16,675 nucleotides of DNA from Chthoniobacteraceae bacterium (GTDB taxonomy: Bacteria > Verrucomicrobiota > Verrucomicrobiia > Chthoniobacterales > Chthoniobacteraceae), in assembly GCA_031409655.1 (NCBI GenBank), contig JANNXQ010000178.1, positions 1-16,675 of the forward strand, read 5' to 3'. Position 1 is the first letter of the stretch. Each line of letters opens with the position of its first letter. Positions 1-16,675 of this stretch are shown piece by piece. The notes below the pieces were generated by a model that saw only the letters and a program-made list of their open reading frames with translations, did not search any database and was not told the DNA's origin. The position numbers and the translations under genes are program-made.

Positions 1-369
1 ATCGATCTCCACTACGCGCCCCTGAGCATCGAAGAGTTGCACGGCAAGATCGGCGGAGTCGTCGGCGTCGAAGAGGATCGTCGCGGCCAGATCCTCATTG
101 ATCCGCCGGCGATCGAGCGTGATCGCAAGTCGCCCGATCCCCTCGCGCTCTGAGGCCGCGGCCTGCCAGCAGCGCGGATCGTCGAGGAAGCGTCCGCCCT
201 GCTGCTCGACGCTCACGACCCATGGCGGCGCTTGCGCGGCCTGGAGCGCGCCGGCTTGCTCAAAGCGCGCATCGAAGCTCAGCTCCGCAATGTCCGGTTG
301 CACGGCGCCGAGCGCGGCCAAGCGCAGGACTGCCGCGACCAGCATGGACATCGGGGAGAAGCGAAACAT
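1..369 (-). CDS. Hypothetical secreted protein, 5' part (runs off the window)
   Basis: Not in the ORF track. Open frame from ATG at 369 to base 1: MFRFSPMSMLVAAVLRLAALGAVQPDIAELSFDARF...DLAVQLFDAQGRVVEID. Signal-peptide-like N-terminus and GC-rich third positions. Confidence 0.7.
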   Translation of the reverse strand, partial: MFRFSPMSMLVAAVLRLAALGAVQPDIAELSFDARFEQAGALQAAQAPPWVVSVEQQGGRFLDDPRCWQAAASEREGIGRLAITLDRRRINEDLAATILFDADDSADLAVQLFDAQGRVVEID

Positions 370-502
370 GGCTACTCGGCGATCCTCGCGAAGGCTGCGG
401 CTTCGGCAAATTCTTTTCCGGCCTTCACTGCAGCGGAAGAGAAGGCGAGCGAGTGGTCAAAGGGGAATAGTGCTCAGCCAAACCCTCGCGTGAAAGTGTG
501 CG

Positions 503-537
503 GAGCGGCTGTCTCCGGGCTGTCGGACCAGCCGCTC
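503..537. repeat. Intergenic inverted repeat / hairpin
   Basis: GAGCGGCTG (503-511) pairs with CAGCCGCTC (529-537), with an inner TCCG/CGGA pair. It lies downstream of the MATE stop and has no clear U-tract. Confidence 0.4.
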
Positions 538-591
538 GCGACAGAGTCGCCCACCAGTTGCTCGTTCAGGCGTTCAGGTAGTCATCGTTGC

Positions 592-1947: not shown

Positions 1948-1959
1948 GAGCGCCTACTA

Positions 1960-2541
1960 CTACACGAGTCCGGCAATGATGCGCTCGAGCTGGGTGCGAT
2001 GGATGCCCATGTGACCACCGGCGAGTGCATACCAGCCGGAGGCATTCATTTCGCCGAACCACGGATGCGCAAAGCGCGCGGACGTATTCAGATCTGCTAC
2101 CGCGGCGGCGGCTGCGAGGACCACGTCGCAAGATGCTTCGTAGTCGGTCGCGACGCTGGCATCCGCCGCCCGACTTGGCTTCACCGCGGCAGTGCTCGCT
2201 GCGCCTTCGGGCGTCTGATTCCTAGCCAGCGTTGAAATGATGCGTGCCATCTCGAGATGCACGATGCGCAGGTGATCGAGCGTCATCCACACGGACCAGT
2301 TGCGACTGCTGTCTTCGAGTCCGGGACACCGCCGGATGAGCACGCGGCGCGCACCGGACTCCGCGTCCACCGAGCGGAGGAGCGCACGGATCATTTCCCG
2401 CTCGCGCTGAAATTTCGCGGTGAAGGAGGCGCGGCTGCCCGTCAGCCGTCGGAGCCGGAAAAGCACCCGCGCGATGAGATGTTCGATGGCGGGAAGCCCC
2501 GCGCCAGGCGGAGCGAGTTGTGGCTTGGTAGTCGTTGTCAT
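1960..2541 (-). CDS. DinB/YfiT-family protein (putative metal-dependent thiol transferase)
   Basis: Start at ATG 2541 (MTTTTKPQLAPPGAGLP), 193 aa. WSVWMTLDHL, HPWFG and HMGIH motifs give the DinB His triad. The upstream extension of the ORF track overlaps the HxlR gene and is not used. Confidence 0.85.
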   Translation of the reverse strand: MTTTTKPQLAPPGAGLPAIEHLIARVLFRLRRLTGSRASFTAKFQREREMIRALLRSVDAESGARRVLIRRCPGLEDSSRNWSVWMTLDHLRIVHLEMARIISTLARNQTPEGAASTAAVKPSRAADASVATDYEASCDVVLAAAAAVADLNTSARFAHPWFGEMNASGWYALAGGHMGIHRTQLERIIAGLV

Positions 2542-2562
2542 CGGCAAACGACATTCCCGATA

Positions 2563-2603
2563 TACTTGCATTACGCAAGTAAAAAGACTTGTGGAATGCA
2601 AGC
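2563..2603. promoter_or_regulatory. Two tandem palindromic operator-like sites in the divergent dinB/hxlR spacer
   Basis: TACTTGC-ATTAC-GCAAGTA (2563-2581, perfect 7-bp arms) and CTTGT-GGAAT-GCAAG (2588-2602) share the CTTG-N7-CAAG spacing, in an AT-rich spacer. Confidence 0.7.
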
Positions 2604-2625
2604 ATTGGCGCGGCAGTATTCCCCC

Positions 2626-3015
2626 ATGCCAAGACCGCAACCCCCGCGCCGAAGTCCGCCCGCTCCCATCCCCGGGACGCGCCGATCCCCGTGTCCCGTC
2701 GCCTGTTCTCTCGATCTCTTCGGCGACCGCTGGACGCTGCTGATCATCCGCGACCTGATGCTCGGCGGCAGCCGCTTCAAGGACTTCACCGCGTCTCCCG
2801 AAGGCATCCCGACCAACATCCTCAGCGACCGCCTCGAGCGCCTCCTCACGAGCCGCATCGTCGAACAAATCCCCACCAGCGAAGGCGCAAAACGGTTCGC
2901 CTACCGCCTCACGGAGAAAGGTGCCGCCCTCCGCGGCGTCGTGAAAGCCATGCGCGACTGGGCGCTCGAATGGGAGCCCGGAACGGAAGCCGCGCTGCCA
3001 GCGAAGCGGAGGTAA
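2626..3015 (+). CDS. HxlR/DUF24-family winged-helix transcriptional regulator
   Basis: ATG 2626, 129 aa: CPVACSLDLFGDRWTLLIIRDL..G..RFKDF...EGIPTNILSDRLERL....YRLTEKG, the typical HxlR pattern with an N-terminal Cys. Confidence 0.93.
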   Translation: MPRPQPPRRSPPAPIPGTRRSPCPVACSLDLFGDRWTLLIIRDLMLGGSRFKDFTASPEGIPTNILSDRLERLLTSRIVEQIPTSEGAKRFAYRLTEKGAALRGVVKAMRDWALEWEPGTEAALPAKRR

Positions 3016-3027
3016 CGGCGGTGGCCG

Positions 3028-6000
3028 TCACTGCAGCCGCACGTGGAGGCGGTAGAAGCGATGCGGCTCGCCGGTGGGGAGCGTGACAATCACGGGCTGA
3101 TTGTTCCCGAGGATATTGCTGGAGCCAGCCACCGGTTGCCACGAGGCGGAGTTCGTGAGGTCGGTGGTGGTCTGGAGATCGTAGATGCGCGTGAGCAGTG
3201 CGTAGGCGAGGCCATCCGCACGGAGAGCCTGGAAGGTGAGTTCGAGGTTCTGGCCGGAGCGGGCGTGCTGGAGAGGATTCGCGGTGCTGCCGGTGGGCAG
3301 CGTGCCGAGGACGTATTCCTGTGCGTTGGTGAAGAGGTCGCCATCGGGGTTCGCGGTGTCGCTGCCGTTGCCGGAATTCGCGGCGCTGCCAAAGTACTGC
3401 TGCCGCCACGTCTGGAGCGGCGTGCCCGTCACCGTGAGGGTGAAACTTTCCGTGTAGCTCGCCGTACCGTCGCTCGCGGCGAGGCCGATGATCGTGCTGC
3501 CGAGCTGATCCGCGGCGGGTGTGGCGGCGACGGTGTAGTAAGGCGACGCGCCTTCGAGCACGATCGCGCTGGCCGGCAGCAGCGCCGCGTTGCTGGAAGT
3601 CGCGGTGACGACCAGTGAGCCCTGCGCGGTGTCGTCTTCGGCGAGGAAGAGGCGCGCGGGGAGCGCGGTGTTGAGCGCGATGGTCCGGTCGGGCAGTGCG
3701 CTCACCAGCGGTGTGCACGCGATGGGCGTGAGGCGGATGTAATCGAGCGCGAGATCGAAGGCGGTGGACGCGCCATTTTTCCCCGTGACGGTAAAGCGAA
3801 ACTGCCAGTCACCGGCGGTGGAGAAATTCACCGTGCCGAGATTGAAGACCGAGGCATTCGTAGCGGCGGCGTAGGTGTCCTGCACCGCGGCGACATTGGT
3901 GAACGTCGCGCTGCCAGGCGGGGCGATGGCGAGTTGCATGCGCCCGCCGGTGGTGAGCCGCAGCACGCCGAGCTTCACATTCCACTGTCCGCTGAAGGGC
4001 ACGTGCGCGCGCAGCGTGAGGTAGTCATTGGCGGCATCGGCATTCAGCCGGCGCGCGGCGTTCGCGCTGAGTCGCGTGTCGGTGACGACCGCCTGCGTGT
4101 CGCCGCCCGACAGCGCGACGACGGCGAGCTTTTCGCACTGGCCGGCGAGCGCATTCCACAGGCCCCAGTAGGCGGGCTTCCGATCGAGCTCGAAGTCGAG
4201 GAGCAACGCCTGGCCGAAACCCGGCGCGAACGCCGGGATCCACGAGATGCCGTCGTACACGCCCCAGGTCTGGAAGACGCGGAGCCGCGAGTAGCCGAGC
4301 ACGGCGCCGGCGTAGCCAAAGTAGTCGTCGCTCTGCGCGGTGAGATCGGCGGCGGTGGCGAAGCCGTTCGCATCGACGGGCACGCGGTAGTCGAGCTCGG
4401 TCACATGCAGATCGAGCCCAAGATCCTGAAAGCGCTGAAAATTCGTGCGCGCCGTCGTGAGATTCGGCCCCGCCTCGAAGTGCGACTGAAAGCCGACGCC
4501 CTGCACGGGCACACCGGCGGCCACGAAGTTCGAGAGCAGGGTGTGGACGGCGTCGCTCTTCGTGTTGTCGTCCTCGATGCTGTAGTCGTTGTAGAAGAGC
4601 TGCGTCTCGGGATCGGCGGCGCGGGCGCGGGCGAAGACTTCGCGCAGATACCGATCGCCATTGGCCGCGTAGCCGATGCCCGGCGTGTCGTACCACAGCG
4701 TGCTGCGCAGCGTGCCGCCGCCGTCGTTCACCGCTTCATTGGCCACATCCCAGCACAGCAGGCGGTGGCGAAAGGCCGCGCCCTTTGTATCGATCTGATC
4801 CCACAGCATCGTCTGGAGCTGCGTCGCGGTGAAGGTGCCGCCGCTCACCCACGCGGGCAGTCCGCCGTGCCAGACGAAAGTGTGCCCGCGCGATGAGCCG
4901 CCGCGCGCGAGGCCGAGTTCGATGATCGTATTCGCATCGGCAAAGCGCCAGATGCCGTCCGCGGGTTCGGTGTCGGAAAATTTCTGCGCATTGCCTGGCG
5001 AAGCGAGATGGAAGTGCGCGCTCATTGCCGCGCGGAACCGTGGATCTTCCGCAAAGTGCGACGTGCTGATCCCGCCGGAGCCGAGCCGCAACGCGGGGAA
5101 CGCCGCCGCCGCGCGCCGCAGCCCCGTGACGGGCGCGAAGTAACAATCATCGACGCGCAGCGCCACGCCGCTGGGCGGACCTTCGACGAAGAACTTCACG
5201 TTCGTAAGCCCCGTCGTCGCCGGCAGCGTCACCGTGCCCGAGAGCCACGTCCACGTCGCGTTCGACGCCGGGCCCGAGGCGATGGCGAGAAAGCGCGAGC
5301 CGCTGCTGTCGATCACCTCGACCGTGAGCCGCACCGTCTCCGGCGTCGGCGAATCCGTCGTCACCCAACCCGCGCCGTAGTACATCCGCCCGTCCTCCGT
5401 CTTTCCGAAAACCGACTGCTCGACGCCATGCCACACCGCCGTGCGATTGCTCACCGTCACGCCGCCGACGCCCGTGTGCGCCGCGCCCGCCGCGCCCGTC
5501 GCCGGCCCATGCGCCTGCCAGCCCACGGCGCCACTCTCGAAGTCCGAGTTCGTGAGCAGATTCTCCAGCGCCGACGTATCGACTGCGCTGAAGCTCACGT
5601 CGTCGAGGAAGAGGTCCACGCCCGCGGGTGGTCCGTTGAAGAAGAGATTGAGCACCGTGAGCGTCCCATTCACATCGAAGCGGAAGAGCCCGCTAATCCG
5701 CGTCCACGTATCGGCGACCTGCAAGTTCCTGAGCCCATTGATGCGCGCGCCCCACGCGTCGGTCTGCTGCACCGAGAGCGCCACCGTCACCGGCGTCGCA
5801 CTGCTCGTGCGCACCCACGCGCTGGCCACGTAGGCTTTTCCCGGCGCCGCCACGCCGAGCAGCGACTGCCGCAGCCCGTGATTCGTCACCGTGCGATTCG
5901 TCGAGCGTCCGACCTGTGCGCCCGAGTGCGGCAGCGTATTCACCACTTGCACCGTGCCCCCACTGTACCCCGCCCACGGCGCGAGCCCCGACTCGAAGCC

Positions 6001-6096
6001 GGGATTGGTGAGCAAATTCGGCGGGGCCGCCTCGAGAGGCGCGAGAAACATCGCGAAGGTGCAGACGAGCCGACACGAGGCCGGGGAAAAACGCAT
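3028..6096 (-). CDS. Secreted multi-domain GH10 endo-1,4-beta-xylanase (signal peptide, 2x CBM4_9/CBM22-like, GH10, CBM-like, Ig-like, C-terminal domain)
   Basis: Probable start ATG 6096 (MRFSPASCRLVCTFAMFLAPLEA). Two NLLTNxxFESG modules. GH10 motifs RGHTFVWH, WDVANE (acid/base), LFYNDY, GVGFQSH, VTELD (nucleophile), TWGVYD..SW. C-terminus has WRQQYFG..DGD..N..EYVLGT.P and ends RFYRLHVRLQ. Confidence 0.93.
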   Translation of the reverse strand: MRFSPASCRLVCTFAMFLAPLEAAPPNLLTNPGFESGLAPWAGYSGGTVQVVNTLPHSGAQVGRSTNRTVTNHGLRQSLLGVAAPGKAYVASAWVRTSSATPVTVALSVQQTDAWGARINGLRNLQVADTWTRISGLFRFDVNGTLTVLNLFFNGPPAGVDLFLDDVSFSAVDTSALENLLTNSDFESGAVGWQAHGPATGAAGAAHTGVGGVTVSNRTAVWHGVEQSVFGKTEDGRMYYGAGWVTTDSPTPETVRLTVEVIDSSGSRFLAIASGPASNATWTWLSGTVTLPATTGLTNVKFFVEGPPSGVALRVDDCYFAPVTGLRRAAAAFPALRLGSGGISTSHFAEDPRFRAAMSAHFHLASPGNAQKFSDTEPADGIWRFADANTIIELGLARGGSSRGHTFVWHGGLPAWVSGGTFTATQLQTMLWDQIDTKGAAFRHRLLCWDVANEAVNDGGGTLRSTLWYDTPGIGYAANGDRYLREVFARARAADPETQLFYNDYSIEDDNTKSDAVHTLLSNFVAAGVPVQGVGFQSHFEAGPNLTTARTNFQRFQDLGLDLHVTELDYRVPVDANGFATAADLTAQSDDYFGYAGAVLGYSRLRVFQTWGVYDGISWIPAFAPGFGQALLLDFELDRKPAYWGLWNALAGQCEKLAVVALSGGDTQAVVTDTRLSANAARRLNADAANDYLTLRAHVPFSGQWNVKLGVLRLTTGGRMQLAIAPPGSATFTNVAAVQDTYAAATNASVFNLGTVNFSTAGDWQFRFTVTGKNGASTAFDLALDYIRLTPIACTPLVSALPDRTIALNTALPARLFLAEDDTAQGSLVVTATSSNAALLPASAIVLEGASPYYTVAATPAADQLGSTIIGLAASDGTASYTESFTLTVTGTPLQTWRQQYFGSAANSGNGSDTANPDGDLFTNAQEYVLGTLPTGSTANPLQHARSGQNLELTFQALRADGLAYALLTRIYDLQTTTDLTNSASWQPVAGSSNILGNNQPVIVTLPTGEPHRFYRLHVRLQ

Positions 6097-6319
6097 GGTC
6101 GAAGAGATTACGTGAAAGCATGGATGCGGCCAAGGGGTTTGGGACCGCAGCTTTCGGGCGGAGCTACGGCCAAGTGATCCATCAGTCATCCGTGGCCAGG
6201 CGTTTTCATTTTGACGGGCGAGGCGGACACCCGCAGGTTCGCGCTCGCGTTTCCGCGCGGAGCTGGCGAACGGTCGGCACCAGAGCGCGGCGCGTTCACA
6301 CCACCACTCACTTTTATCC

Positions 6320-7708
6320 ATGGCAAACTACGACCTCATCGTCATCGGCGGCGGGCCTGCGGGCTACGTCGGGGCAATTCGCGCGGCGCAACTCGGCAAG
6401 AAAGTCGCCTGCGTCGATAAGGATCGCCTCGGCGGCACGTGCAATAACTGGGGCTGCATCCCGACCAAGGCGCTGCTGAAAAGTGCGGAGCTTTATCACA
6501 CCATGTCGCACCGCGCGGCGGAGTTTGGCATGAAGTTCGACGGGCTCACCTTTGACTGGAGCAAGATCATCAAACGCTCGCGCGACGTCTCGGAGAAAGG
6601 TTCGGCGGGCGTCGAGTTTCTCTTCAAGAAGAACAAGATCGACTACCTGCGCGGCGAGGCCTCGATCGAGAAAGCTGGGACGGTGAAGGTGAAGGCAGAG
6701 GACGGCAAAGAGGAGGCGCACACCGCGGCGAAGATTCTCATCGGCACAGGCTGCGTGTCGCGGCCGATGCCGAATTTCCCCTTCAACGGCAAGACCGTCA
6801 TCGGCAGCAAGGAAGCCATGGCGCTCGAGAAGCAGCCGAAGTCGATCATCATCATCGGCGCGGGTGCGATCGGGATTGAGTTCGCGTATTTCTACAACGC
6901 CTACGGCACGAAGGTGACGGTTGTCGAAATGCTGCCCAATCTTCTGCCCGTCGAAGACACCGAGGTCTCGGTGGCGCTGGAGAAATCGTTCACCAAGCAA
7001 GGCATCGCCTTTTTGACGAACACCAAGACGACCAAGACCGAAGCGAACGACAAGGGCGTAAAAATCACCGTCGCGGATGCGAAGGGCGCGGAGAAAGTGC
7101 TCGAGGCCGACGTGTGCCTCGTGGCCATCGGCGTCGCGCCAGTGGTGCCTGGTGGCGCGAAGATCGGCCTCACCGATCGCGGTTACATCCAGGTGAATGA
7201 TCGCTACGAGACGACCATCCCCGGCGTGTATGCCGCAGGGGACATCATCGGGCCGCCTTGGCTCGCGCACGTCGCGAGCTGGGAAGTGCTCCAGGCCGTG
7301 AACGGCATGTATGTGAATGGCTTCAAGCCCAAGAAAGTCGGCCTCTTCCCCGGCTGCACCTACTGCCATCCGCAAGTCGCCAGCGTCGGCCTCACCGAAC
7401 GCGCCGCGAAGGAAGCCGGGAAGAAATTTAAAGTCGGCAAGTTCCCCTTCATGGCCAGCGGCAAAGCGCGCGCCATCGGCGAGAGCGAAGGTTTCGTAAA
7501 ACTGATCATCGGCGAACCGCACGGCGAAATCCTCGGCGCGCACATCATCGGCCCAGAAGCCACCGAGCTGATCGCCGAACTCGGACTCGCGATCCATCTC
7601 GAGGCCACCGTCGATGAGATTGAAGCCACGATCCACGCCCACCCGACGCTTAGCGAAGCGGTGAAGGAAGCCGTGGAAGTGGCCATGGGCCACGCGATTC
7701 ACATCTGA
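6320..7708 (+). CDS. lpdA: Dihydrolipoamide dehydrogenase (E3)
   Basis: 462 aa. GGGPAGYVGAIRAAQLG FAD motif, GGTCNNWGCIPTK redox disulfide, GAGAIGIE NAD motif, C-terminal HPTLSE. Confidence 0.97.
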   Translation: MANYDLIVIGGGPAGYVGAIRAAQLGKKVACVDKDRLGGTCNNWGCIPTKALLKSAELYHTMSHRAAEFGMKFDGLTFDWSKIIKRSRDVSEKGSAGVEFLFKKNKIDYLRGEASIEKAGTVKVKAEDGKEEAHTAAKILIGTGCVSRPMPNFPFNGKTVIGSKEAMALEKQPKSIIIIGAGAIGIEFAYFYNAYGTKVTVVEMLPNLLPVEDTEVSVALEKSFTKQGIAFLTNTKTTKTEANDKGVKITVADAKGAEKVLEADVCLVAIGVAPVVPGGAKIGLTDRGYIQVNDRYETTIPGVYAAGDIIGPPWLAHVASWEVLQAVNGMYVNGFKPKKVGLFPGCTYCHPQVASVGLTERAAKEAGKKFKVGKFPFMASGKARAIGESEGFVKLIIGEPHGEILGAHIIGPEATELIAELGLAIHLEATVDEIEATIHAHPTLSEAVKEAVEVAMGHAIHI

Positions 7709-7723
7709 GCGCGGAGCTGGGTC

Positions 7724-7784
7724 AGGGAGTTGGGGCGCCCTCGCCCCAATTGTGCAACTCGGGGCGGGGGCGCCCCGGCTCCTT
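7724..7784. repeat. REP-like inverted doublet (24-bp stem, 13-nt loop)
   Basis: AGGGAGTTGGGGCGCCCTCGCCCC (7724-7747) versus GGGGCGGGGGCGCCCCGGCTCCTT (7761-7784). All 4 mismatches are G-U compatible on the + transcript. Each arm is GGAG plus an internal hairpin. Confidence 0.75.
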
Positions 7785-7842
7785 GGAATCGCCGTGCCGA
7801 TTTCTGGTTCCGGGAATGGCGATCCGCGCGTAGCAGTTGGCC

Positions 7843-8514
7843 GTGCTGCCACGTGAATTCTTTCAACGCGACCCGGTGACCTGTGCGCGCGCGTTGATCG
7901 GCTGCGAACTGGTCTGGAACGAGTGCGCCGGCATCATCGTGGAGACGGAAGCGTACTCCGTGCAGAACGACGAAGCCTGCCACACCTTCGCGCGACCCTC
8001 CGCGCGCGCCTTTGTGGAAAAGCACCGCGCCGGCGATGCCTACGTGTACTTCAACTACGGCATGTACTGGCTGCTCAATGTCCTCGTCAAAGGCGGGAGC
8101 GAGGATGGCTTCGTGCTCCTCCGCGCTCTCGAGCCCACGCGCGGCCTCGCCGCCATGCAGCGCCGCCGCAGTGCCCATCGGAAATCTGCAATCTGCAATC
8201 TTAAATCCACCGCCCTCTGCTCCGGCCCCGGCAAGCTCGCCATGGCCCTCGCCGTCGATGGCCGCGACTACGGTCGTGACCTTTGCGCGAGCGAAGCAGT
8301 CGGTTTCCGCGTGCCACCGGCACCGACCGAAGTCGCCATCGACATCCGCATCGGCATCTCGAAAGCCGCGCACCTCCCCTGGCGCTTCCTGGCCCACGGC
8401 AGTGACTTTGTGAGCGTGAAGCCGACCCTCGCCGCGCAGTTGCCCACCGTTCGGAGTCCGCGCGAGAAACGAAGGAACCAGGGAATACTTGCCCCCAAGC
8501 GGCTGTCATACTGA
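7843..8514 (+). CDS. mpg: DNA-3-methyladenine glycosylase (MPG/AAG family)
   Basis: LPREFF.RD...AR.LIG, GIIVETEAY...D.ACH, YVYFNYGMYWLLNV, VLLRALEP, LCSGPGKL, RIGISKA..LPWRF. Start is GTG 7843 or TTG 7837. Confidence 0.95.
   Translation: MLPREFFQRDPVTCARALIGCELVWNECAGIIVETEAYSVQNDEACHTFARPSARAFVEKHRAGDAYVYFNYGMYWLLNVLVKGGSEDGFVLLRALEPTRGLAAMQRRRSAHRKSAICNLKSTALCSGPGKLAMALAVDGRDYGRDLCASEAVGFRVPPAPTEVAIDIRIGISKAAHLPWRFLAHGSDFVSVKPTLAAQLPTVRSPREKRRNQGILAPKRLSY
8176..8210 (+). repeat. Heptamer tandem repeat inside mpg
   Basis: CATCGGA AATCTGC AATCTGC AATCTTA AATCCAC, translated as HRKSAICNLKST. Confidence 0.7.
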
Positions 8515-8527
8515 GCGAAGCGGAGCA

Positions 8528-8557
8528 AATCGTGCAAATCGGAATCGTGCAAATCGG
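8528..8557. repeat. Perfect 15-bp tandem duplication
   Basis: AATCGTGCAAATCGG at 8528-8542 and 8543-8557, preceded by a partial copy. Confidence 0.85.
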
Positions 8558-8578
8558 GACCGGTCTTCTGCCGTGCAT

Positions 8579-8716
8579 GCCAAGCTCGCAGCCCTCGGTT
8601 TCGCACTGCGCCTTGGTCGGGGTGGCGATGGTCGCCCACGTCGCCTGCTCGATGGGATCGGAGCGGCGCTGCACCGTGTAGCTCTTGGCGTCGGAGAGCG
8701 GCTTTCATATTGCTAA
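8579..8716 (-). pseudogene. Fragment of a fibronectin type III-like domain gene
   Basis: Frame reads LAI*KPLSDAKSYTVQRRSDPIEQATWATIATPTKAQCETEGCELG with almost all third positions G/C. It resembles the W-x-P-x3-AKSY-x-V-Q FN3 pattern, with TGA (8705-8707) where Trp is expected. The YxFRVxA strand is missing. Confidence 0.55.
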
Positions 8717-8923
8717 GTTGGCGGCAGGCTCATGCTTGCCGTCGCATTCTCACATTGCCGGGCCCATGCCAGCCTCGGGATCATTTGCGGAAAAAGCCGG
8801 TTTTACTCTGGGAAATACCTTTTCGCGCCGCCTGGGAAGGCGCTCCGCGGAAACTTTTGCCTGTCAAAAACGAGAGCCGGTAAATCATTCCCGGCATATT
8901 TTTATGCGGCGGAATTTCCAAAT

Positions 8924-9154
8924 CGTGTGAACGAGACGCCGTCCAGTGCGCACGAAACGACGTTTCGTGCGAACGATGCGCCGCTCAGTGCGCACGAAAC
9001 GACGTTTCCTGTGAACGATGCGCCGCTCAGTGCGAACGAAATGGCGTTTCGTGTGAACGATGCGCCGTTTAGTCCGAACGAAACGGCGTTTTGGGTGAAC
9101 GATTTGCCGCATAGTGTGCACTGGATGGCGATTCCGGTGGACAACGCTCGGATT
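8924..9154. repeat. Tandem array of eleven 21-bp units with A/B alternation (42-bp super-period), quasi-palindromic
   Basis: Units such as AGTGCGCACGAAACGACGTTT (8945-8965, identical at 8987-9007) alternate with CGTGCGAACGATGCGCCGCTC-type units. The array degenerates toward 9154. Confidence 0.92.
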
Positions 9155-9297
9155 TTTTCTACGTCCCCCGCCGCAGCCGGGACGTGGGCGGTTCTTATCG
9201 GGAATCCGGTGGCGTCCAACCATCCGCCGAACCCCAAGTCTCTCGACACCGCTTCTCCTTTCGCATTTCGTTCTTGGAATTCTCGATTGAGAACAAA

Positions 9298-10500
9298 ATG
9301 CCTCAACCGCCAAGCAAACCCGCCTCCAAACACGCAAAACCACCGAAGGTGGGACGCTCGCCCCAGAGGGAGCGCGGCAATGCCGCGGATTCCAGCATTC
9401 TCCTCGAAGATGCTCCTGAATATGCCGCTGCCTCTCCGCGCTTCATCGACCTCTTCTGCGGCATCGGCGGCTTCCGCCTCGCCTTCGAGCGAGCGGGCGG
9501 GCGGTGTGTCTTCTCCTCCGACTACGACAAATTCAGCCAGCAGACCTACGAGGCGAATTTCGGCGAGCGCCCGCATGGCGACATCCACAGCGTCGCCGTC
9601 GCCGACATCCCCGCACACGACATCCTCTGCGGCGGCTTCCCCTGCCAGCCGTTCAGCATCGCGGGCGTGTCGAAGAAACTGAGCCTCGGCCGCAAGCACG
9701 GCTTCGAGGACGTGAAGCAGGGCAACCTCTTCTTCTCCATCGCCGACATCCTCGACTTCCACCGCCCCGCCGCGTTCGTCCTCGAGAACGTCAAGAACCT
9801 CAAGGGCCACGACGGCGGCAAGACCTTCGAGATCATCCACCGCACCCTCACCGAAGCGCTCGGTTACACCGTCTATTACAAGATCATCGACGCGCAGAGC
9901 GTCGTCCCCCAGCACCGCGAGCGCATCTTCCTCGTCGGCTTCCGCGAGTGGCGGTATTTCGAGTTCCCGCAGTTTCCCGCCGACGGTCCAAAGCTCGGCA
10001 GCATCCTCGAAACGAAACCGGACCCGAAATACACGCTCTCCGACCATCTCTGGACTTACCTCCAGAACTACGCCGCCAAACATCGCGCCGCCGGCAATGG
10101 CTTCGGCTTCGGCCTCGTCACCGAGCGCGACATCGCCCGCACGCTCAGCGCGCGCTACCACAAGGACGGCTCGGAAATCCTCATCGCGCAGAACGGGGGG
10201 CGCGTTCCCCGACGGCTTACTCCGCGTGAATGTGCCCGCCTCATGGGCTACCCGGAGTCGTTCAAAATCATCGTGTCTGACACGCAGGCTTATCGGCAAT
10301 TCGGCAACTCGGTTGTCGTTCCGGTCATCGAGAAAATTGCCCGCTCCGTTTGTGCGGCCCTCCGACGTCCGGTTGGTGAAACGCCGGATTTCGTTCTCAC
10401 GGCTGCGGAGCGTCCAGAGTCGCTTCCGGTTGAGTTACCTAGAACGCCCGTCCACTACGCGAAACCTCAGCGCGCAAAGCGCGCTCCACGTAAGAAATGA
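9298..10500 (+). CDS. dcm: DNA (cytosine-5)-methyltransferase, Dcm/M.EcoRII-like (predicted CCWGG)
   Basis: ATG 9298, 400 aa. Motif I FIDLFCGIGG, IV GFPCQPFSIAGVSKK, VI ENVKNL, VIII PQHRERI, Dcm-type recognition region KHRAAGNGFGFGLV...RTLSARYHKDGSEILI, IX RRLTPRECARLMGY, X SDTQAYRQFGNSV. Confidence 0.95.
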   Translation: MPQPPSKPASKHAKPPKVGRSPQRERGNAADSSILLEDAPEYAAASPRFIDLFCGIGGFRLAFERAGGRCVFSSDYDKFSQQTYEANFGERPHGDIHSVAVADIPAHDILCGGFPCQPFSIAGVSKKLSLGRKHGFEDVKQGNLFFSIADILDFHRPAAFVLENVKNLKGHDGGKTFEIIHRTLTEALGYTVYYKIIDAQSVVPQHRERIFLVGFREWRYFEFPQFPADGPKLGSILETKPDPKYTLSDHLWTYLQNYAAKHRAAGNGFGFGLVTERDIARTLSARYHKDGSEILIAQNGGRVPRRLTPRECARLMGYPESFKIIVSDTQAYRQFGNSVVVPVIEKIARSVCAALRRPVGETPDFVLTAAERPESLPVELPRTPVHYAKPQRAKRAPRKK

Positions 10501-11477
10501 ACGCCGACTTACTCCTTCAATTCCTGAACGACCCTGCTTGGGACGCCCCGTTTTTCAAGCGACTGGCGCATAATGACACGGGACAAGCGAGTGGCCACCA
10601 AGGCGGCATCGTCGTTCCGAAGGACCTTCGCGGCTACTTTCCCGCGCTCGACGAAGGGCTCGCCTCCGCCATCGCACCAACTGTTGACCGCTATCTCATC
10701 ACGGAAATGTTTGTTCCGGGTCAGCAGGTCGGCAGTGACATGGTGCGGTATCAATTTCAGACGTGGGGCGGCACGCGCAGCGCCGAAAGCCGCCTGACTG
10801 ATAACCTCGGACCCATCCGCAACAAGGCGCACGAAGGCGACTTGTTCATCATGCAACGCAGCCGTGACCGGCTCGATTCCTACCGCTTGGTGCTCGTTCG
10901 CAAAACCGATGCAGCGTTTGCGCAACTCGACGCCCTCACGCAGGGCACCCGCTGGGGCGCGCTGTTCTCCACGCGCCCGCCAATCTCACAACAAGAGCTA
11001 GTCGTTGCTCGCGCTGCGATGCTCGCGGATACCGCACAGCCATTCGTTCCAGTTCGCGAGAATGTTCCCCGCGTTGCAACGAGTCGGCAGGCAATCGCGC
11101 GCGATACTGCCTTCCGCGAAACGCTACTGACGCAATATCGGCGGCGTTGCGCCGTGAGCGGAATTGCCCTCGCGACGCACTCGCTCGCGGAAGCTGAAGC
11201 CGCCCACGTCATCCCGATTGGTCGCGGCGGCGCCGACGAACCTCGCAACGGATTCACCCTGACAGGAACGCTGCATTGGGCCTTTGACCGCGGACTATTC
11301 GGCGTCGCTGATAACCGCCGCGTCCTCGTGCCGGCGCGTGTGCGCGGGATGCAGGAGAATTCGTGGCTCGTCCAATTTCACGACAAGCCCATTGCCGAAG
11401 CAGATGTTTCGACGCTGCGGACTGCAACGGAAGCGTTCGCTTGGCACCGTGCGAATCTCCTCGTGCAGTGGGCCTGA
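10497..11477 (+). CDS. Putative restriction endonuclease: EcoRII-N-like DNA-binding domain fused to an HNH nuclease
   Basis: 326 aa with an ATGA overlap on the dcm stop. N-terminal FFKRLAHNDTGQASGHQGGIVVP resembles the EcoRII-N motif KRLSANDTGATGGHQ. C-terminal RD.AFR..L...Y..RCAVSG...EAAHVIP...GG.DEPRNG..L...LHWAFDRGL is HNH_2-type. Confidence 0.88.
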   Translation: MNADLLLQFLNDPAWDAPFFKRLAHNDTGQASGHQGGIVVPKDLRGYFPALDEGLASAIAPTVDRYLITEMFVPGQQVGSDMVRYQFQTWGGTRSAESRLTDNLGPIRNKAHEGDLFIMQRSRDRLDSYRLVLVRKTDAAFAQLDALTQGTRWGALFSTRPPISQQELVVARAAMLADTAQPFVPVRENVPRVATSRQAIARDTAFRETLLTQYRRRCAVSGIALATHSLAEAEAAHVIPIGRGGADEPRNGFTLTGTLHWAFDRGLFGVADNRRVLVPARVRGMQENSWLVQFHDKPIAEADVSTLRTATEAFAWHRANLLVQWA

Positions 11478-11516
11478 TTTTTTTCCTGGCAAGCGCATCG
11501 AGACCTGGTAGCGATC

Positions 11517-11894
11517 ATGGGCATGAGCACATGCATCTCCGTTCCAAACACGCTGCGTGCAGCGGGTCGGGCACTTCGCGGCGGTTTCGCCTCGCCCGTT
11601 GAAAAACTTGCCAAAGCCGACTTCGTCCGCGCGTGGTGCGCCATTGCTTACATTTATCCCGGCCTGCATCCGGAGGGTTTCGAGGAGAAAGATAATGGGT
11701 GGCCGCGCGTGTTGAAACGCTTCGCGGCTGATGCGTGGCGGCGGGCGGAAATTGGCGAACTGGACGAGAATGAAATGTATGTCTGCGACGCACAATGGGC
11801 CGGGCTTTACGACCGGATGCACACGCACGAGGACGACGAAACCGCGCGCCGTTTCCAAATTGCCGCCGACTACGGCGAGCCCGCCGATGGCTGA
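11517..11894 (+). CDS. Hypothetical protein (125 aa), no recognised family
   Basis: Fills the gap between the HNH gene and vsr in the same orientation, and its stop overlaps the vsr start (ATGGCTGA). Protein-like composition, rich in Trp/Tyr and acidic residues. Start 11517 or 11523. Confidence 0.7.
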   Translation: MGMSTCISVPNTLRAAGRALRGGFASPVEKLAKADFVRAWCAIAYIYPGLHPEGFEEKDNGWPRVLKRFAADAWRRAEIGELDENEMYVCDAQWAGLYDRMHTHEDDETARRFQIAADYGEPADG

Positions 11895-12330
11895 TGTCTT
11901 CACCCCGGCGAAGCGCAGCGCCGTCATGTCGCTCATCCGCTCGCGCGGCAACCGCGCGACGGAACTCCGCCTCATCGCGCTCATGCGCGAACACGGCATC
12001 ACCGGCTGGCGGCGGAACGCACTCGTCTTTGGCAAACCGGATTTTGTCTTCTACCGCGCGCGGGTCGCCGTGTTTGTGGACGGCTGCTTTTGGCACGGCT
12101 GCCCTCGCCACGCGACCAGTCCAGCGAACAACCGAGCGTTTTGGGAAGCCAAACTCTCCCGGAATGGAACTCGCGACCGCGAAGTATCCCGCAACTTGCG
12201 CAAAGCTGGCTGGACAGTTTTGCGAATCTGGGAATGTGCGCTCACGCCAGCACGAGCAGGGCGCACGTTGAAGCGGGTCGTCGCGGCATTGAGCCGATCA
12301 TCGTTGGCGCAGACGACCCGCCGATGCTGA
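11887..12330 (+). CDS. vsr: Very short patch repair endonuclease
   Basis: ATG 11887, 147 aa: MADVFTPAKRSAVMSLIRSRGN..TE, GKPDFVF, VFVDGCFWHGCP, FW..KL.RN..RD, GW.VLRIWEC. Confidence 0.96.
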   Translation: MADVFTPAKRSAVMSLIRSRGNRATELRLIALMREHGITGWRRNALVFGKPDFVFYRARVAVFVDGCFWHGCPRHATSPANNRAFWEAKLSRNGTRDREVSRNLRKAGWTVLRIWECALTPARAGRTLKRVVAALSRSSLAQTTRRC

Positions 12331-12439
12331 GATCGCCAGAGGACGATGCCGCCCCGGTGAAAAGCCGGAGCAGCCACCTTTTCCGCACGGACAAAGCCAT
12401 CACCCTCGAGGACGAAATTGCGCCGCACTGCTGCACGCG

Positions 12440-12463
12440 GCCGCCCGAGACGGCGGCGCTCCC
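12440..12463 (-). repeat. Single REP-like palindrome just downstream of ftsZ
   Basis: Minus strand GGGAGC-GCCGCC-GTCTCG-GGCGGC: GGAG plus a 6-bp GC hairpin, 4 nt after the ftsZ stop. Confidence 0.5.
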
Positions 12464-12467
12464 GGGT

Positions 12468-13814
12468 TTACTTCACCCGGAGATTCCGGCGGAGGAAGGT
12501 GGGCACGTCGAGGTCTTCACCGTTCACAATCGTGGGCTCGCTTTTCTCGAAACGCCCGCGGGTGACGGGCTCGAAGAGCATCTGTTCCTGCTTCGCTTCG
12601 CGCGCGGCTTTTTCTGCTTCGGCAGCAGCTTTGCGGGCTTGCTGCGTGGGCGTGGCACTGGCGGCGCTCGGGGCGGCTTCCGGGCGAGCTTTGGCGGCGA
12701 CTTGCGCGCGGTCCACGTCGTCTTCCGGCTCGACGAAGGCGAGGATTGGCGCGGGCCTGGGAGTTTCCGGCTCGGGCTCGGACGGACGCTGGGGTGCGGT
12801 GTGAGCCGCTGGGGTGGGCCGTGCGGCGATGCGCGCCGGGGCTTCGCCGCCGAGGGCGCTGAGGATCGTCACGCGCATTTTTCCACCGAGCTGCGCATCC
12901 GTGCCGCAGCCAAAAAGAATCCGCGTGGTGTCGCTGATGTGCCGGCCGAGTTCCTCCATGAGGATCTGCACTTCATTCAAGGTCATGCCGGGTCCGCCGA
13001 CGACATTCACGAGGACGTTGGCGGTTTCGTCGAGCAGTCGGCCGCGGTCCAGGAGCGGGCTTTTGAGCGCCTGGCTGAGGGCTTCGTGCGCGCGGTTGTC
13101 GCCGTCCGCTTCGCCGAAGCCGAAGATGCAGCGGGCATTCTGCGCGCGCAGGGTGGTGGCGAGTTCGTCGAAGCCGATGTGGATGAGGCCGCGCTGCTTC
13201 ACGAGGGAAGCGATCGCGCGGACGCTTTGGCTGAGCATCTGGTCGGCGGCGCCGAAGGCTTCCTGAATGCCCGCCCGCGGACTGACGGCATCGCCGAGGC
13301 GATCGTTTTCAAAACAGATGACGACGTCCGCCTGCTGCTGGAGCGCGGCGAGGGCTTCCTCTGCCTGGGCGAGGCGGCGCTTGCCTTCAAATTGAAAAGG
13401 CAAGGTGGCGAAGACGACGACGAGCGCGTTGTTCTCGCGGGCGTAGTTCGCGATCAAGGGCGCGGCACCGGAGCCAGTGCCACCGCCGAGTCCGACCAGG
13501 AGAAAAACCATCGACGCGCCTTCGAGCACGCTGCGCAGTTCGTCGGCCGACTCTTCCGCGGCGATGTAGCCGAGTTCCGGATCGCCGCCGGTGCCGAGCC
13601 CGCGCGTGGTCGCGCGTCCGATCTGCACCTTGTCGCCCGCGACCGATGCGAGGAGCGATTGCGCATCGGTATTCACGGCCACGAGGTCCGCCCCGGGCAC
13701 GCCGTCGAGCATCAGGCGGTCGAGGGCATTCGCACCGGCGCCGCCGATGCCGAGGATCTTGATCACGGGTTCCGTCGCCGGTTGGCTCGAAGGGTTGCGC
13801 GGGAGTTCGATCAT
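12468..13814 (-). CDS. ftsZ: Cell division protein FtsZ
   Basis: 448 aa. GIGGAGANA, VNTDAQ, GLGTGGDP..G, GLGGGTGSGAAP signature, PFQFEG, Pro/Ala linker, C-terminal core DLDVPTFLRR. Confidence 0.96.
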   Translation of the reverse strand: MIELPRNPSSQPATEPVIKILGIGGAGANALDRLMLDGVPGADLVAVNTDAQSLLASVAGDKVQIGRATTRGLGTGGDPELGYIAAEESADELRSVLEGASMVFLLVGLGGGTGSGAAPLIANYARENNALVVVFATLPFQFEGKRRLAQAEEALAALQQQADVVICFENDRLGDAVSPRAGIQEAFGAADQMLSQSVRAIASLVKQRGLIHIGFDELATTLRAQNARCIFGFGEADGDNRAHEALSQALKSPLLDRGRLLDETANVLVNVVGGPGMTLNEVQILMEELGRHISDTTRILFGCGTDAQLGGKMRVTILSALGGEAPARIAARPTPAAHTAPQRPSEPEPETPRPAPILAFVEPEDDVDRAQVAAKARPEAAPSAASATPTQQARKAAAEAEKAAREAKQEQMLFEPVTRGRFEKSEPTIVNGEDLDVPTFLRRNLRVK

Positions 13815-13820
13815 GGCTCG

Positions 13821-13848
13821 TTGGATTTCAGATTTCAGATTTCAGATG
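13821..13848 (-). repeat. Heptamer tandem repeat in the ftsA-ftsZ spacer
   Basis: Minus strand CATCTGA AATCTGA AATCTGA AATCCAA (GATTTCA x3 on +). Confidence 0.8.
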
Positions 13849-13863
13849 TGAAAGAGATCGCGC

Positions 13864-15084
13864 TCACCAGAGCCAAAGCCCGAAGAAGGCGAGCTTCTTG
13901 CGGATCCAGGTGAATGCCCCGGTGGGCTGCTCCGGCTGCATCGCTTGCGCGTATTTGATGAGACCGATGGCGGTCGAAAATTGCGGGTTCTCAAAGGCGG
14001 AAATATTTCCCGAGACCGAGGTCGCGTGCGTCACGGCCGCCTGGATGCCGAAGATTTCCTCGGCGAGTTCGCGGATGCCATCGAGCAGACTGCACCCGCC
14101 CGTGAGCATGAGTCCGGCGCCGAGAAATTCGAGGGCGATCCCGGCGTCGTCGAGCTGGCTGCGGAGCAACTCCAGCGTCTCGCGCACCCGGCAGTGGATG
14201 ATGCTGTTCAGCATTTCGCGCTCGATCTCTTTTCCGGCGAAGCCCGTCTCGTCCTTCAGCACGATCATCTCGCCCGGCCGACTCGCGCCGATGGTCACGC
14301 TGCCTTCCTCGCGCTTCAGCTTTTCCGCGCGATTGATCGGGATGCGCAGGCCGAGGGAAATGTCGTTGGTGATGTGATCGCCGCCGATCGGCACGCAGCC
14401 GCTGATCTTCACCGCGCCATCGATATAGACGATGTAGTCCGTGGTCCCGCCGCCCATGTCGATGACCAGCGCGCCGAGCCCTTTCTGATTGTGATCGAGC
14501 ACGACCTGCGCGGTGGCGAGCGGCGCGAAGACGACGTCGATGACCTCGGGCCCGACTTCCTTCACGCAGCGCACGCTATTCCGGATGCGCGTGGAGATGC
14601 CGTGGATGATGTGAAAATCCGCCTCCAGCCGGCGTCCGCACATGCCGATGGGATTGAGCACGCCGTCCTGCCCATCCACGTAGTAGTGCTGGAGCAGGGT
14701 ATGCACGAACATATTGGTCTGCGGGATGCTGACGTCGCCGGCATTGGCCTGCACTTCGTCAAAGTCCTCGTCGCAGATCTCGTCGCGCTCTTCGGGGATG
14801 TTGATCGCGCCGCGATTATTAAAGCTCTGGATGTGGCCGCCGGTGATTGCGAGATAGACGGCGCCGATGGCCACGTCACTTTTCTCCTCGGCAAAGGCGA
14901 GGGCTGAGCGGATGCATTTGCCGGCGGTTTCAAAGTCCACGATTTCGCCTTTGCGCACGCCGCGCGAAGGCTCCTCGCCCACGCCCAGGATTTTCACGGT
15001 TCCATCGCTGCGGCTTTCACCGACGGCGACGCAGATTTTCGAAGTCCCGATTTCGAGACCGACGAAGAGGTTATCTTTGCCCAT
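13864..15084 (-). CDS. ftsA: Cell division protein FtsA
   Basis: ATG 15084 (MGKDNLFVGLEIGTSKI), S.GVRKGEIVD, IDMGGGTTD, PIGGDHITNDI, AEKLK, LTGGCSLL, amphipathic C-terminal helix. Overlaps the ftsQ end by 14 nt. Confidence 0.96.
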   Translation of the reverse strand: MGKDNLFVGLEIGTSKICVAVGESRSDGTVKILGVGEEPSRGVRKGEIVDFETAGKCIRSALAFAEEKSDVAIGAVYLAITGGHIQSFNNRGAINIPEERDEICDEDFDEVQANAGDVSIPQTNMFVHTLLQHYYVDGQDGVLNPIGMCGRRLEADFHIIHGISTRIRNSVRCVKEVGPEVIDVVFAPLATAQVVLDHNQKGLGALVIDMGGGTTDYIVYIDGAVKISGCVPIGGDHITNDISLGLRIPINRAEKLKREEGSVTIGASRPGEMIVLKDETGFAGKEIEREMLNSIIHCRVRETLELLRSQLDDAGIALEFLGAGLMLTGGCSLLDGIRELAEEIFGIQAAVTHATSVSGNISAFENPQFSTAIGLIKYAQAMQPEQPTGAFTWIRKKLAFFGLWLW

Positions 15085-16159
15085 TTGAGTTAAACGGTTT
15101 TTTGAGATGATCGACTGGCGAGGTTTTGCGGACGGTTGAAGAAGGACTCGGGGAGGTCGCGGGCCGAGGCGTTGGGGTCGCGGTTCGCGGAGCGGGTGTG
15201 GCCTTTGGCGGCGTGCTTTTCGGCGCAGTTTTGCTGCCGGGTTTGGCGGGCGGCACTGGCGCGAGGGCGACGGGTTCGGGTTCGGGCTCCGCGGGCGTGG
15301 TGTAGGTGTTTTTCTCACCAAAGAGATTCACGCGCCGGAGTTCCTTCTGCTTCTCGACGCCGATGACCGCGAAGAGCTTGTGCAGCCGTTCGAGCTGCCG
15401 CTCAAGATTGTCGAGATGGAAGGTGACCTGAATGTGGCGGCTATCGGTGACCACGAGCGAATAGCCGTTGGCGACGTCGATCGTCTTGATCTGCCACCGG
15501 GTGTCGTCGGCATTGAGCCGCACCAGCTCGAGCGCGGCCTGGATCTCGTAGTTCGCCGCGCGCTGGCCAGCGGCGAGATTTTCCACCGGGAAGCCGCAGA
15601 TGATCGGCAGACGGAGATACTGGTGGAGCGCGCTGCGCGGCTGCATCGGGATCGCGCGCGCATCGATGAGGAAGGCTTTCCTGGAGGTCGTCGGGTCTTC
15701 GGTGCCCGTCGTCATGACCCAGGCGATGGGCTTCCGCTCCGAGACGGTGACATTCACGCGATTCGGAAAGAGGCGTCGCACCTCCACGCGATCGACCTGC
15801 GGCATCGCGGCGATGCGTGCGCGCGCGCCGGAGATATCGACTTTGAAAATGTTCACGCCTTCGACCAACTGTGCGGTGTTCAGGGCATCCTCGCGGAGCA
15901 GCGTGCCATCGGTGCGGTAGATGATTTCGGCGAGCGCGTAGTCGGGATTTTGCCAGACGAAACGGCGGAGCGCTTCCTTGCCGCCGACGACGGTGCCGAT
16001 GATGAGCGCCACCCAGAAGACGAACTTGCAGACCGTGAAAAGGGCGATGCGCTTGCGGCGCGAGCGCTCCTTGCTCTGGCGCGCCGTGACTTCGAGCGCG
16101 TGCTCGCGCTGGCGGCGGCGCTGGTAGTTTCCCCGGGTGTTGGCGGGCTTCTTTTTCAT
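15071..16159 (-). CDS. ftsQ: Cell division protein FtsQ/DivIB (POTRA domain)
   Basis: ATG 16159 with an ATGA overlap on the ddl stop. Basic N-terminus, one TM segment, POTRA (NIFKVDI...MPQVDRVEVRRLFPNRVNVTVSERKPIAW), Pro-rich tail; lies between ddl and ftsA. Confidence 0.92.
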   Translation of the reverse strand: MKKKPANTRGNYQRRRQREHALEVTARQSKERSRRKRIALFTVCKFVFWVALIIGTVVGGKEALRRFVWQNPDYALAEIIYRTDGTLLREDALNTAQLVEGVNIFKVDISGARARIAAMPQVDRVEVRRLFPNRVNVTVSERKPIAWVMTTGTEDPTTSRKAFLIDARAIPMQPRSALHQYLRLPIICGFPVENLAAGQRAANYEIQAALELVRLNADDTRWQIKTIDVANGYSLVVTDSRHIQVTFHLDNLERQLERLHKLFAVIGVEKQKELRRVNLFGEKNTYTTPAEPEPEPVALAPVPPAKPGSKTAPKSTPPKATPAPRTATPTPRPATSPSPSSTVRKTSPVDHLKKPFNSNGQR

Positions 16160-16674
16160 GACCGACGGGCGAGGGAAAGTTCGACGATGCGGCGGCAGAG
16201 CTCGGGATAGGTGAGGCCGACGACGGCGGCCGCCTCGGGGAGAAGACTCGAGGGCGTCATCCCGGGAATGGTATTGATCTCGAGAACAAAAGGTTGGCCG
16301 TGCGCATTGAGGAGCACATCGACGCGCGAATACACTTCGAGTTCGAGGGCCTGATGCGCGGCGAGGGCCGACTCCTGGACGCATTTGGTTTCTTCCGGCG
16401 TGAGCGCAGCGGGACAGAAGTGTTCGGCGCCGGGAGCGTTTGGATTCAGGAAGGGGTACTTGTTTTCGAAATTGTAGAAGTCCTTCTTCGCCACGATCTC
16501 GATCACGGGCAGAACCTGCGAACCGACGATGCCCACGGTGAGTTCACGCCCGGCGATGTATTCCTCGACGAGAAGTTCGCGCGCGTAGCGGTGCGCTTCG
16601 TTCACGGATTCATCGACCTTGGCCGCTTCCTTCACGATGTACACGCCGACGCTCGAGCCTTCCTTCGGCGCCTT
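16156..16674 (-). CDS. ddl: D-alanine--D-alanine ligase, 3' part (5' end outside the window)
   Basis: KAPKEGSSVGV, VEEYIAGRELTVGI, FYNFENKY omega loop, YSRVD, LEINTIPGMT.SLLP. Confidence 0.95.
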   Translation of the reverse strand, partial: KAPKEGSSVGVYIVKEAAKVDESVNEAHRYARELLVEEYIAGRELTVGIVGSQVLPVIEIVAKKDFYNFENKYPFLNPNAPGAEHFCPAALTPEETKCVQESALAAHQALELEVYSRVDVLLNAHGQPFVLEINTIPGMTPSSLLPEAAAVVGLTYPELCRRIVELSLARRS

Positions 16675-16675
16675 G

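Follow-up and report, generated by a model that had tools for sequence, protein, structure and literature searches.

Within a 16,675-nucleotide stretch of a Chthoniobacteraceae genome (contig JANNXQ010000178.1, positions 1 to 16,675; the whole of this stretch is referred to here as the window), a Dcm-type cytosine methyltransferase gene is followed immediately by a gene whose product joins an N-terminal B3 domain of the EcoRII-N kind to an HNH nuclease domain at the C-terminus. This B3-HNH protein is probably a Type II restriction enzyme with unmethylated CCWGG as its binding site, the DNA close by being cut by a dimer of its HNH domains. A preliminary description of this DNA had predicted Dcm-protected CCWGG restriction, and that prediction is upheld by the fold, the recognition residues, the specificity region of the methylase, the linkage of the two genes, and a gene swap with an EcoRII-family enzyme. 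The nuclease, its parts and the methylase are as follows (aa, amino acids; ORF, open reading frame):

10497..11477, + strand: ORF of 326 aa encoding the B3(EcoRII-N)-HNH nuclease, predicted to be the cognate restriction enzyme
10533..10976, + strand: B3/EcoRII-N reader domain, about aa 13-160 of the nuclease
10989..11030, + strand: linker helix of the nuclease, aa 165-178, from DSSP of the AlphaFold2 model
11052..11474, + strand: TagI/VcaM4I-type HNH domain, about aa 186-326 of the nuclease
9298..10500, + strand: Dcm/M.EcoRII-type C5 cytosine methyltransferase, 400 aa from the ATG at 9298; Pfam PF00145, E 3e-86; predicted C5mCWGG

For the reader domain, the Pfam EcoRII-N match taken alone is weak (aa 19-102, E 8e-4, 19.7 bits, below the 25-bit cut-off); among 64 aligned homologues, 60 match this model at E<=0.01, and a family profile run against the PDB returns EcoRII-N (3hqf, E 2.5e-5) and TagI (E 7e-5) as its top matches. 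The AlphaFold2 model of the nuclease (predicted local distance difference test score, pLDDT, 92; predicted template-modelling score, pTM, 0.84) superposes on EcoRII-N with Z scores of 14.3 (1na6) and 13.7 (3hqf), 152-154 residues being aligned at a root-mean-square deviation (rmsd) of 2.8-3.0, and its N-terminal half gives Z 12.3 with BfiI-C and 12.1 with UbaLAI-N. The EcoRII-N-like domain proposed earlier is thereby confirmed; the earlier statement that the gene begins with KRLAHNDTGQASGHQGG was wrong, as KRLAHNDTGQASGHQGG makes up residues 21-37.

EcoRII-N contacts the bases of its site through N28, H36, Q37, Y85, R94, E96 and R98 (PMC2770665), and by alignment all seven have identical counterparts here, namely N26, H34, Q35, Y85, R94, E97 and R99. 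The one additional residue between R94 and E97 relative to EcoRII yields the spacing of UbaLAI, in which the C-arm carries R86/E89/R91 in an R-x-x-E-x-R arrangement (PMC5766183). The exact seven-residue set is found in 36 of the 50 GTDB loci that cover both domains (63 loci were found, and 13 partial ones were set aside) and in 31 of 70 divergent representatives (50% clustering; P0265, with a different B3 variant, is dropped from a set of 71), the others mostly showing H>N or Y>F. According to the report on EcoRII-N, its monomer binds in a single orientation, binding is lost when the inner C of either strand is methylated, and the EcoRII counterparts of Y85 and Q35 are modelled to clash with 5-methylcytosine (5mC; PMC2770665). 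The most divergent readers (W90R variants, for example) have almost no gene context, and a metagenome scan with a divergent member gave mostly window-like proteins; L009 and L058 carry such divergent readers, yet Dcm-type methylases are present there.

The methylase points to the same site. In its core it shares 59% identity with a plasmid M.EcoRII-type enzyme and 57% with E. coli Dcm; in its specificity region the corresponding figures are 40/55 (73%) and 33/55 (60%). All 49 locus methylases with an alignable specificity region are 48-73% identical to Dcm there, and a single locus, L043, has a methylase in which this region is deviant. At L043, as an observation in its own right, an HhH-GPD glycosylase gene (7923-8591) follows the nuclease in place of vsr; Vsr repairs the T:G mismatches that arise from 5mC deamination at Dcm sites. 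The best PADLOC model for the window's methylase is DrmMII, which modifies CCWGG. Membership in a class II DISARM system was considered and rejected, since drmA/B/C/E are absent and only dcm, the nuclease gene, orf125 and vsr lie between mpg and ftsZ; no Drm model is found among the best 5 matches per protein for 85 neighbour ORFs (longest non-overlapping, >=150 aa, <=900 bp from the cassette).

The architecture is common and not a one-off, with 429 clusters at 90% identity and 135 representatives at E<=1e-30, the nearest named relatives being encoded in metagenome-assembled genomes (MAGs) of Terrimicrobiaceae (86%) and Chthoniobacteraceae (78%). In the two-domain loci, homologues too sit beside dcm genes: 47/50 have a Dcm-type methylase no more than 1.6 kb away (in one, L007, as a stub only), as do all 30 that have at least 3 kb on both sides. 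The methylase is upstream of the nuclease gene in 36, convergent in 10 and downstream in 1, and a Vsr gene is present in 34/50; of the three loci lacking a linked methylase, L013 ends 105 bp upstream, while L015 and L020 have 5'-truncated nucleases. The nuclease ATG in the window overlaps the methylase stop (ATGA), as had been seen in the sequence before. Among 20 loci with the methylase directly upstream, 7 share this -4 overlap. Methylase and nuclease distances are correlated across 47 loci (rho 0.39; 0/500 permutations), a figure that is not counted as support because shared host ancestry can explain it.

Hosts belong to the Verrucomicrobiota, Planctomycetota, Bacteroidota and Pseudomonadota, with single rows from the Acidobacteriota, Ignavibacteriota and Lentisphaerota. 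One of 84 plasmid matches is full-length, that of Thauera pTha01 (WP_012592908.1), a plasmid of a cultured strain that carries the cassette; two of 12 matches on IMG/VR viral contigs are full-length, both accompanied by dcm and vsr, and among 3 matches to phage records none is full-length. A methylase is visible in 8 of 12 metagenome loci, 3 being too short upstream and 1 matching the HNH domain only. In a Type II restriction-modification (R-M) system, too, the nuclease has a gene of its own that is linked to its cognate methylase. This linkage bears on the proposal that the protein is instead a Type IV, modification-dependent nuclease with methylated DNA as its target, like TagI and VcaM4I, the Type IV enzymes with the closest HNH folds. 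Near-universal linkage to a methylase of the same site would be self-destructive for such an enzyme, and among 350 modification-dependent fusions of PUA and nuclease domains, a DNA methylase is reported to lie no further than 3 kb away in under 6% (PMC6765204). Here, moreover, the reader is a B3 domain and not SRA or EVE, with Y85 and Q35 kept, so that we consider a Type IV activity very improbable.

The strongest contextual evidence for CCWGG restriction is a gene swap seen in related genomes. The cassette, which beyond the two genes described at first also includes orf125 and vsr, runs in the order dcm, B3-HNH nuclease, orf125, vsr between mpg and ftsZ. The remaining features are:

11517..11894, + strand: orf125, a 125-aa all-helical protein; the gene family is real (447 homologues)
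11887..12330, + strand: Vsr very-short-patch repair endonuclease; TIGR00632 over cut-off, Pfam Vsr E 9e-21
8515..12467, no strand: whole insert between mpg and the ftsZ end; absent from this site in same-genus genome G001
7837-8514 (+) and 12468 (-): mpg and the ftsZ end, the borders of the insert

Because mpg directly abuts the ftsZ end in G001 (L110), the cassette of about 4 kb is taken to be an insert. Another same-genus genome, G002, has the order dcm (90%), a 431-aa EcoRII-C-family enzyme, orf125 (68%) and vsr (73%). At the DNA level it is similar to the window over 9292-10332, 10387-10466 and 11478-12242, skipping the B3-HNH gene and restarting at 11478, one base past the nuclease stop. 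With an EcoRII-family enzyme in the exact slot, the B3-HNH gene reads as a one-for-one replacement of the cognate restriction enzyme. In G031 and G038 a similar methylase is paired with MvaI/BcnI-family enzymes, which are matched by PF15515; the B3-HNH protein is not, and lacks this domain. Three different nucleases therefore occupy one slot beside one CCWGG methylase, two of them from families with characterised CCWGG cutters. Among 41 related genomes, the window's own included, the nuclease has a full-length match in 2, a patchiness expected of a mobile R-M cassette, and a close methylase is present in 9/41.

As to the means of cleavage, the HNH_2-type domain assigned earlier to the C-terminus is matched by Pfam at aa 218-270 (E 3e-11, over cut-off), and the C-terminal half of the model superposes on TagI (6ghs) with Z 13.7, rmsd 2.2 and 114 residues aligned, and on VcaM4I with Z 10.2. 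The catalytic residues of TagI, H229, N245, H254 and D258 (PMC6212794), correspond to H237, N251, H260 and D264 of the nuclease, and these in turn to H224, N241, D250 and D254 of VcaM4I (PMC7897488). The preliminary description had correctly given the His/Asn/His core (H237, N251 and H260) as retained and left the fourth catalytic residue, D264, unnamed; the whole tetrad is invariant in 71/71 family representatives. No ATPase domain was found in the nuclease by Pfam scan. A homodimer is predicted with a score of 0.61 (best of 3 controls, 0.00), in runs that agree in at least 92% of contacts at pLDDT >=85, through an interface on the HNH helix (aa 222-232, 256-267 and 285-291). The mark applied to homodimers is reached by 20/30 solved homodimers and 1/23 monomers, and the support for this one may stem from likeness to the solved TagI and VcaM4I dimers. 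With an HNH dimer predicted, double-strand cutting is favoured over nicking.

In the mechanism that we propose, the methylase would mark the inner C of host CCWGG sites, and Vsr would repair the T:G mismatches left by 5mC deamination. The B3 domain would bind unmethylated CCWGG in the major groove, in a single orientation like EcoRII-N, and a methyl group on the site would block this binding. Binding would then license the HNH-domain dimer to make a double-strand cut outside the site; as with TagI, the cut would probably leave a 1-nt 3' overhang and fall at a loosely fixed distance. Incoming phage would be restricted in this way. The linker helix at aa 165-178 sits like the auto-inhibitory linker helix of VcaM4I and may, by analogy, hold the nuclease in check; the predicted cut distance, overhang and auto-inhibition are modelled on the TagI cutting pattern and the VcaM4I linker helix.

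Several observations weigh against CCWGG restriction by this route, one of them the state of the zinc site. The degenerate ligands pointed out in the preliminary description are indeed C218/S221/T256/L259, with three of the four ligands lost, and the zinc-ligand mutants of TagI are described as having lost most activity, to the point of being nearly dead (PMC6212794); on that account, the activity of the zinc-less subfamily is something that we only infer. The protein might accordingly be catalytically weak or dead, protecting through CCWGG binding or acting as a regulator. Yet the tetrad is invariant, and loss of zinc ligands is all-or-none and common to a large subfamily: 38/70 representatives have a complete site (CCCH or CCCD), 29/70 are without the three later ligands and 3/70 are partial. 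In a 52-row tree the zinc-bearing rows form one supported clade, and the window falls in a supported zinc-less clade of 22 rows, so that, judged from these sequences, the loss appears to be a subfamily trait and not decay. VcaM4I, an active enzyme, is likewise without the zinc cysteines by our own reading of the alignment, and a dead protein is most improbable.

A second set of contrary observations comes from loci in which the cassette is irregular. At L007 the nuclease is intact, but of the methylase there is only a stub of 87 aa, which lies behind another HNH gene, and a search of the MAG for a further Dcm-type gene found none. The nuclease is intact at L012 and L037 too, where the methylase gene is frameshifted, possibly through sequencing errors. 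Damaged nucleases occur at L023 and L034. The cassette holds a second restriction-enzyme-like gene at 5/50 loci, of the EcoRII-C family in L022 and L056 and of a probable PD-(D/E)XK family in L002, L003 and L006, and the same holds for L086, L102, L104 and L106. These second enzymes (5/50), together with the intact nucleases beside broken methylases (3/50), the loss of the zinc site and the binding of B3 as an oriented monomer, would suit a site-specific nickase or weak back-up nuclease that partners Vsr or another restriction enzyme. The predicted HNH dimer, however, is of the double-strand-cutting kind, and among the well-flanked loci another nuclease-like gene stands beside the cassette in only 5/30, the B3-HNH protein being, besides Vsr, the sole detected nuclease in 25/30; we regard a nicking or auxiliary role as quite unlikely.

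The second enzymes also enter into a different proposal, that of a site-triggered suicide nuclease, in which unmethylated incoming CCWGG would free the linker helix and the HNH dimer would degrade DNA broadly, the host's included, as in abortive infection. The free HNH domain of VcaM4I is reported to be a toxic, non-specific nuclease restrained by its linker helix (PMC7897488), a like helix is modelled here, and where the B3-HNH protein stands beside a complete EcoRII-type enzyme (L056, L086 and L104) a second layer of this kind would add value. On the other hand, the B3-HNH gene swaps one for one with an ordinary restriction enzyme, and TagI is described as cutting no more than about 20 nt from its site, with 1-nt 3' overhangs (PMC6212794). 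Abortive infection is thus an unlikely outcome, and restriction in the ordinary Type II manner is preferred.

Two gene families at these irregular loci may be recorded separately. A family of 316-335 aa adjoins the B3-HNH gene in L002 (5990-6997), L003, L006, L102 and L106; it has no Pfam or PADLOC match and its PD-(D/E)XK-like structural look-alikes fall below the naming bar. Its members are candidates for yet another restriction enzyme. Where dcm or the B3-HNH gene is truncated, at three loci, there is an HNH gene of 260 aa that belongs to the PADLOC PDLC04132 type. Genes of this type lie in L007 (1128-1922), L117 (724-1527), L042 and L085 (5893-6669) and hint that the cassette has been displaced more than once; in the window's own genome, the second methylase is followed by a similar gene.

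Further contrary points concern the reader, the sampling and the avoidance of the site. EcoRII phosphate contacts Y41, K92 and R101 are without counterpart in the nuclease, the specificity-region comparison of the methylases was made without a CCNGG methylase control, and the GTDB locus sample is biased to the window's clade because the scan patterns came from that clade. Among 32 interrupted palindromes, CCWGG shows the strongest depletion in a set of 51 nuclease genes (45 vs 112; CCSGG 0.93), and it is still depleted after thinning to 21 genes (14 vs 40; CCSGG 0.9). The corresponding CCWGG values are 0.63 for flanking ORFs and 0.57 for own-genome ORFs, however, the nuclease gene lies below its flanks in only 28/38 loci, and the genome-wide observed-to-expected (O/E) ratio of 0.84 is a weak avoidance that is not diagnostic. 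Avoidance is mostly background, then, and lends modest support, all the more as methylation alone could cause it. The genome itself avoids other sites far more strongly than CCWGG, namely GTCGAC (O/E 0.05), CAGCTG (0.09), and GTMKAC and GTGCAC (0.11-0.13), which points to long-standing R-M pressure at those sites.

The B3-HNH protein resembles several characterised enzymes in part. With EcoRII (Type IIE, CCWGG; 1na6, 3hqf) it shares the N-terminal B3 domain with its seven base-contact residues, the methylase family and the gene slot in a same-genus genome. It lacks the PD-(D/E)XK EcoRII-C domain, however, its C-terminal half being HNH_2/TagI-like with no room for more, and whereas in EcoRII the B3 domain serves as allosteric effector reader, with CCWGG being read by the catalytic domain itself, B3 is here the sole evident specificity module. 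UbaLAI (a monomeric Type IIE enzyme, B3 plus MvaI-like; 5o63) has in common with it a B3 reader for CCWGG and the C-arm spacing, but uses an MvaI-type domain where this protein has HNH, and is a monomer where a dimer is predicted here. TagI (SRA-HNH; 6ghs) and VcaM4I (EVE-HNH; 6yex) share the HNH fold, the H/N/H(D)/D set, the linker helix and the predicted HNH-helix dimer; their readers hold a 5mC/5hmC (5-hydroxymethylcytosine) pocket of the PUA superfamily, in contrast to a B3 domain for unmodified sequence, and with B3-HNH linked to a cognate methylase their logic is inverted.

BfiI (Type IIS, PLD plus B3; 2c1l, 3zi5) is similar in that B3 is the sole specificity domain and directs a distinct nuclease domain to cut outside the site; in the two-domain model here, too, recognition and cleavage lie in separate domains, a Type IIS-like trait. 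It differs in that B3-HNH uses HNH and not PLD, places its reader N-terminally, and has CCWGG and not ACTGGG as its predicted site. The R-M operons with MORC and SWI2-SNF2 proteins described by Iyer et al. (2008) bring together a stand-alone VP1/RAV (B3) protein with HNH, Vsr and a cytosine methylase (PMC2292703); here B3 and HNH form one chain, the window is without helicase or GHKL ATPase, and the B3-HNH fusion is absent from the accessible part of that description. The enzyme thus combines a BfiI-like design with EcoRII/UbaLAI-like reading and TagI-like cutting, and belongs to none of these families. The preliminary description named no characterised enzyme with this architecture but allowed for one; in the open-access literature no study of a B3/EcoRII-N-HNH fusion was found; REBASE and supplements lie outside that search and could hold a member.

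A more specific version of the Type II reading, which we put forward tentatively as a possibility, is an inverted Type IV design: an auto-inhibited HNH dimer, familiar from methylation-dependent nucleases, switched on by the absence of methylation, sensed by an oriented B3 monomer, and cutting outside a pseudo-palindromic site. If true, this would imply that the cut falls on a single defined side of the site, or else in trans and at a distance that varies, and would constitute an undescribed mechanistic subtype of Type II enzyme, a cutter that senses Dcm status. As part of the same tentative view, the B3 reader may be a general sensor of unmethylated CCWGG, because GHKL-kinase, AAA-ATPase and other effectors carry it as well. 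Joined to this B3 domain are a GHKL/MORC-like ATPase and a histidine-kinase-like domain (1130 aa and 896 aa), in L046 (7001 onward) near dcm, vsr and an EcoRII-C gene; further fusions carry a PDC-M62A-like AAA ATPase or an unassigned C-terminal domain (fusion set: L046, P0270, P0208, P0264). The best 120 of 270 matches in a B3-domain search are B3-HNH proteins only. EcoRII-N is also reported to serve as the sensor domain of Menshen (PMC12065111).

Should the Type II reading be true, HNH would become the fourth nuclease type of B3-guided restriction enzymes, after EcoRII-C, MvaI-like and PLD, and the TagI-type HNH module would serve methyl-dependent and methyl-blocked restriction alike, depending on the attached reader. 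No full-length PADLOC or NCBIfam model exists for the B3-HNH protein, and because PADLOC is without one, many of the dcm-vsr loci taken for "orphan" ones may be functional R-M systems. Such hidden systems matter for transforming the Verrucomicrobia, Planctomycetes and Proteobacteria that carry them.

For the small gene orf125, neither Pfam nor Atlas nor fold comparison gives a match (best Z 4.0). A member of its family forms the C-terminal tail of the second C5 methylase in this genome (C40; hhalign probability 98.8), at L085 7118-8716, and the family accompanies dcm/vsr cassettes regardless of nuclease type; the protein is possibly a methylase or Vsr accessory domain. L085 (G000:C40) is a second defence island of the genome, with the C5 methylase, a small ORF, HNH, several unknown genes and a second vsr.

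The assembly at the dcm/nuclease junction is supported by contigs of two public runs that cross it with zero differences; they come from one study, possibly from the source sample, and serve as a check on assembly only. In the one RNA-labelled run, which is probably DNA, the nuclease gene is without cover. Neither a sigma-70 promoter nor a convincing terminator was found at the locus, and no nuclease-like genes besides the cassette's own were detected elsewhere in the window. ORFs 8732-9682 and 8885-9343, in an alternative frame, have zero Pfam matches and were rejected as GC-rich shadows. Upstream of dcm lies an imperfect tandem repeat (8923-9110; 42-bp period, 4.5 copies, 86%) seen in this contig only, and 12331-12467 resembles about ten further places in the genome. 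Elsewhere in the window, 3028-6321 (-) encodes a secreted-looking protein of 1097 aa that, judged by eye, has carbohydrate-binding-like repeats and a glycoside-hydrolase-like middle.

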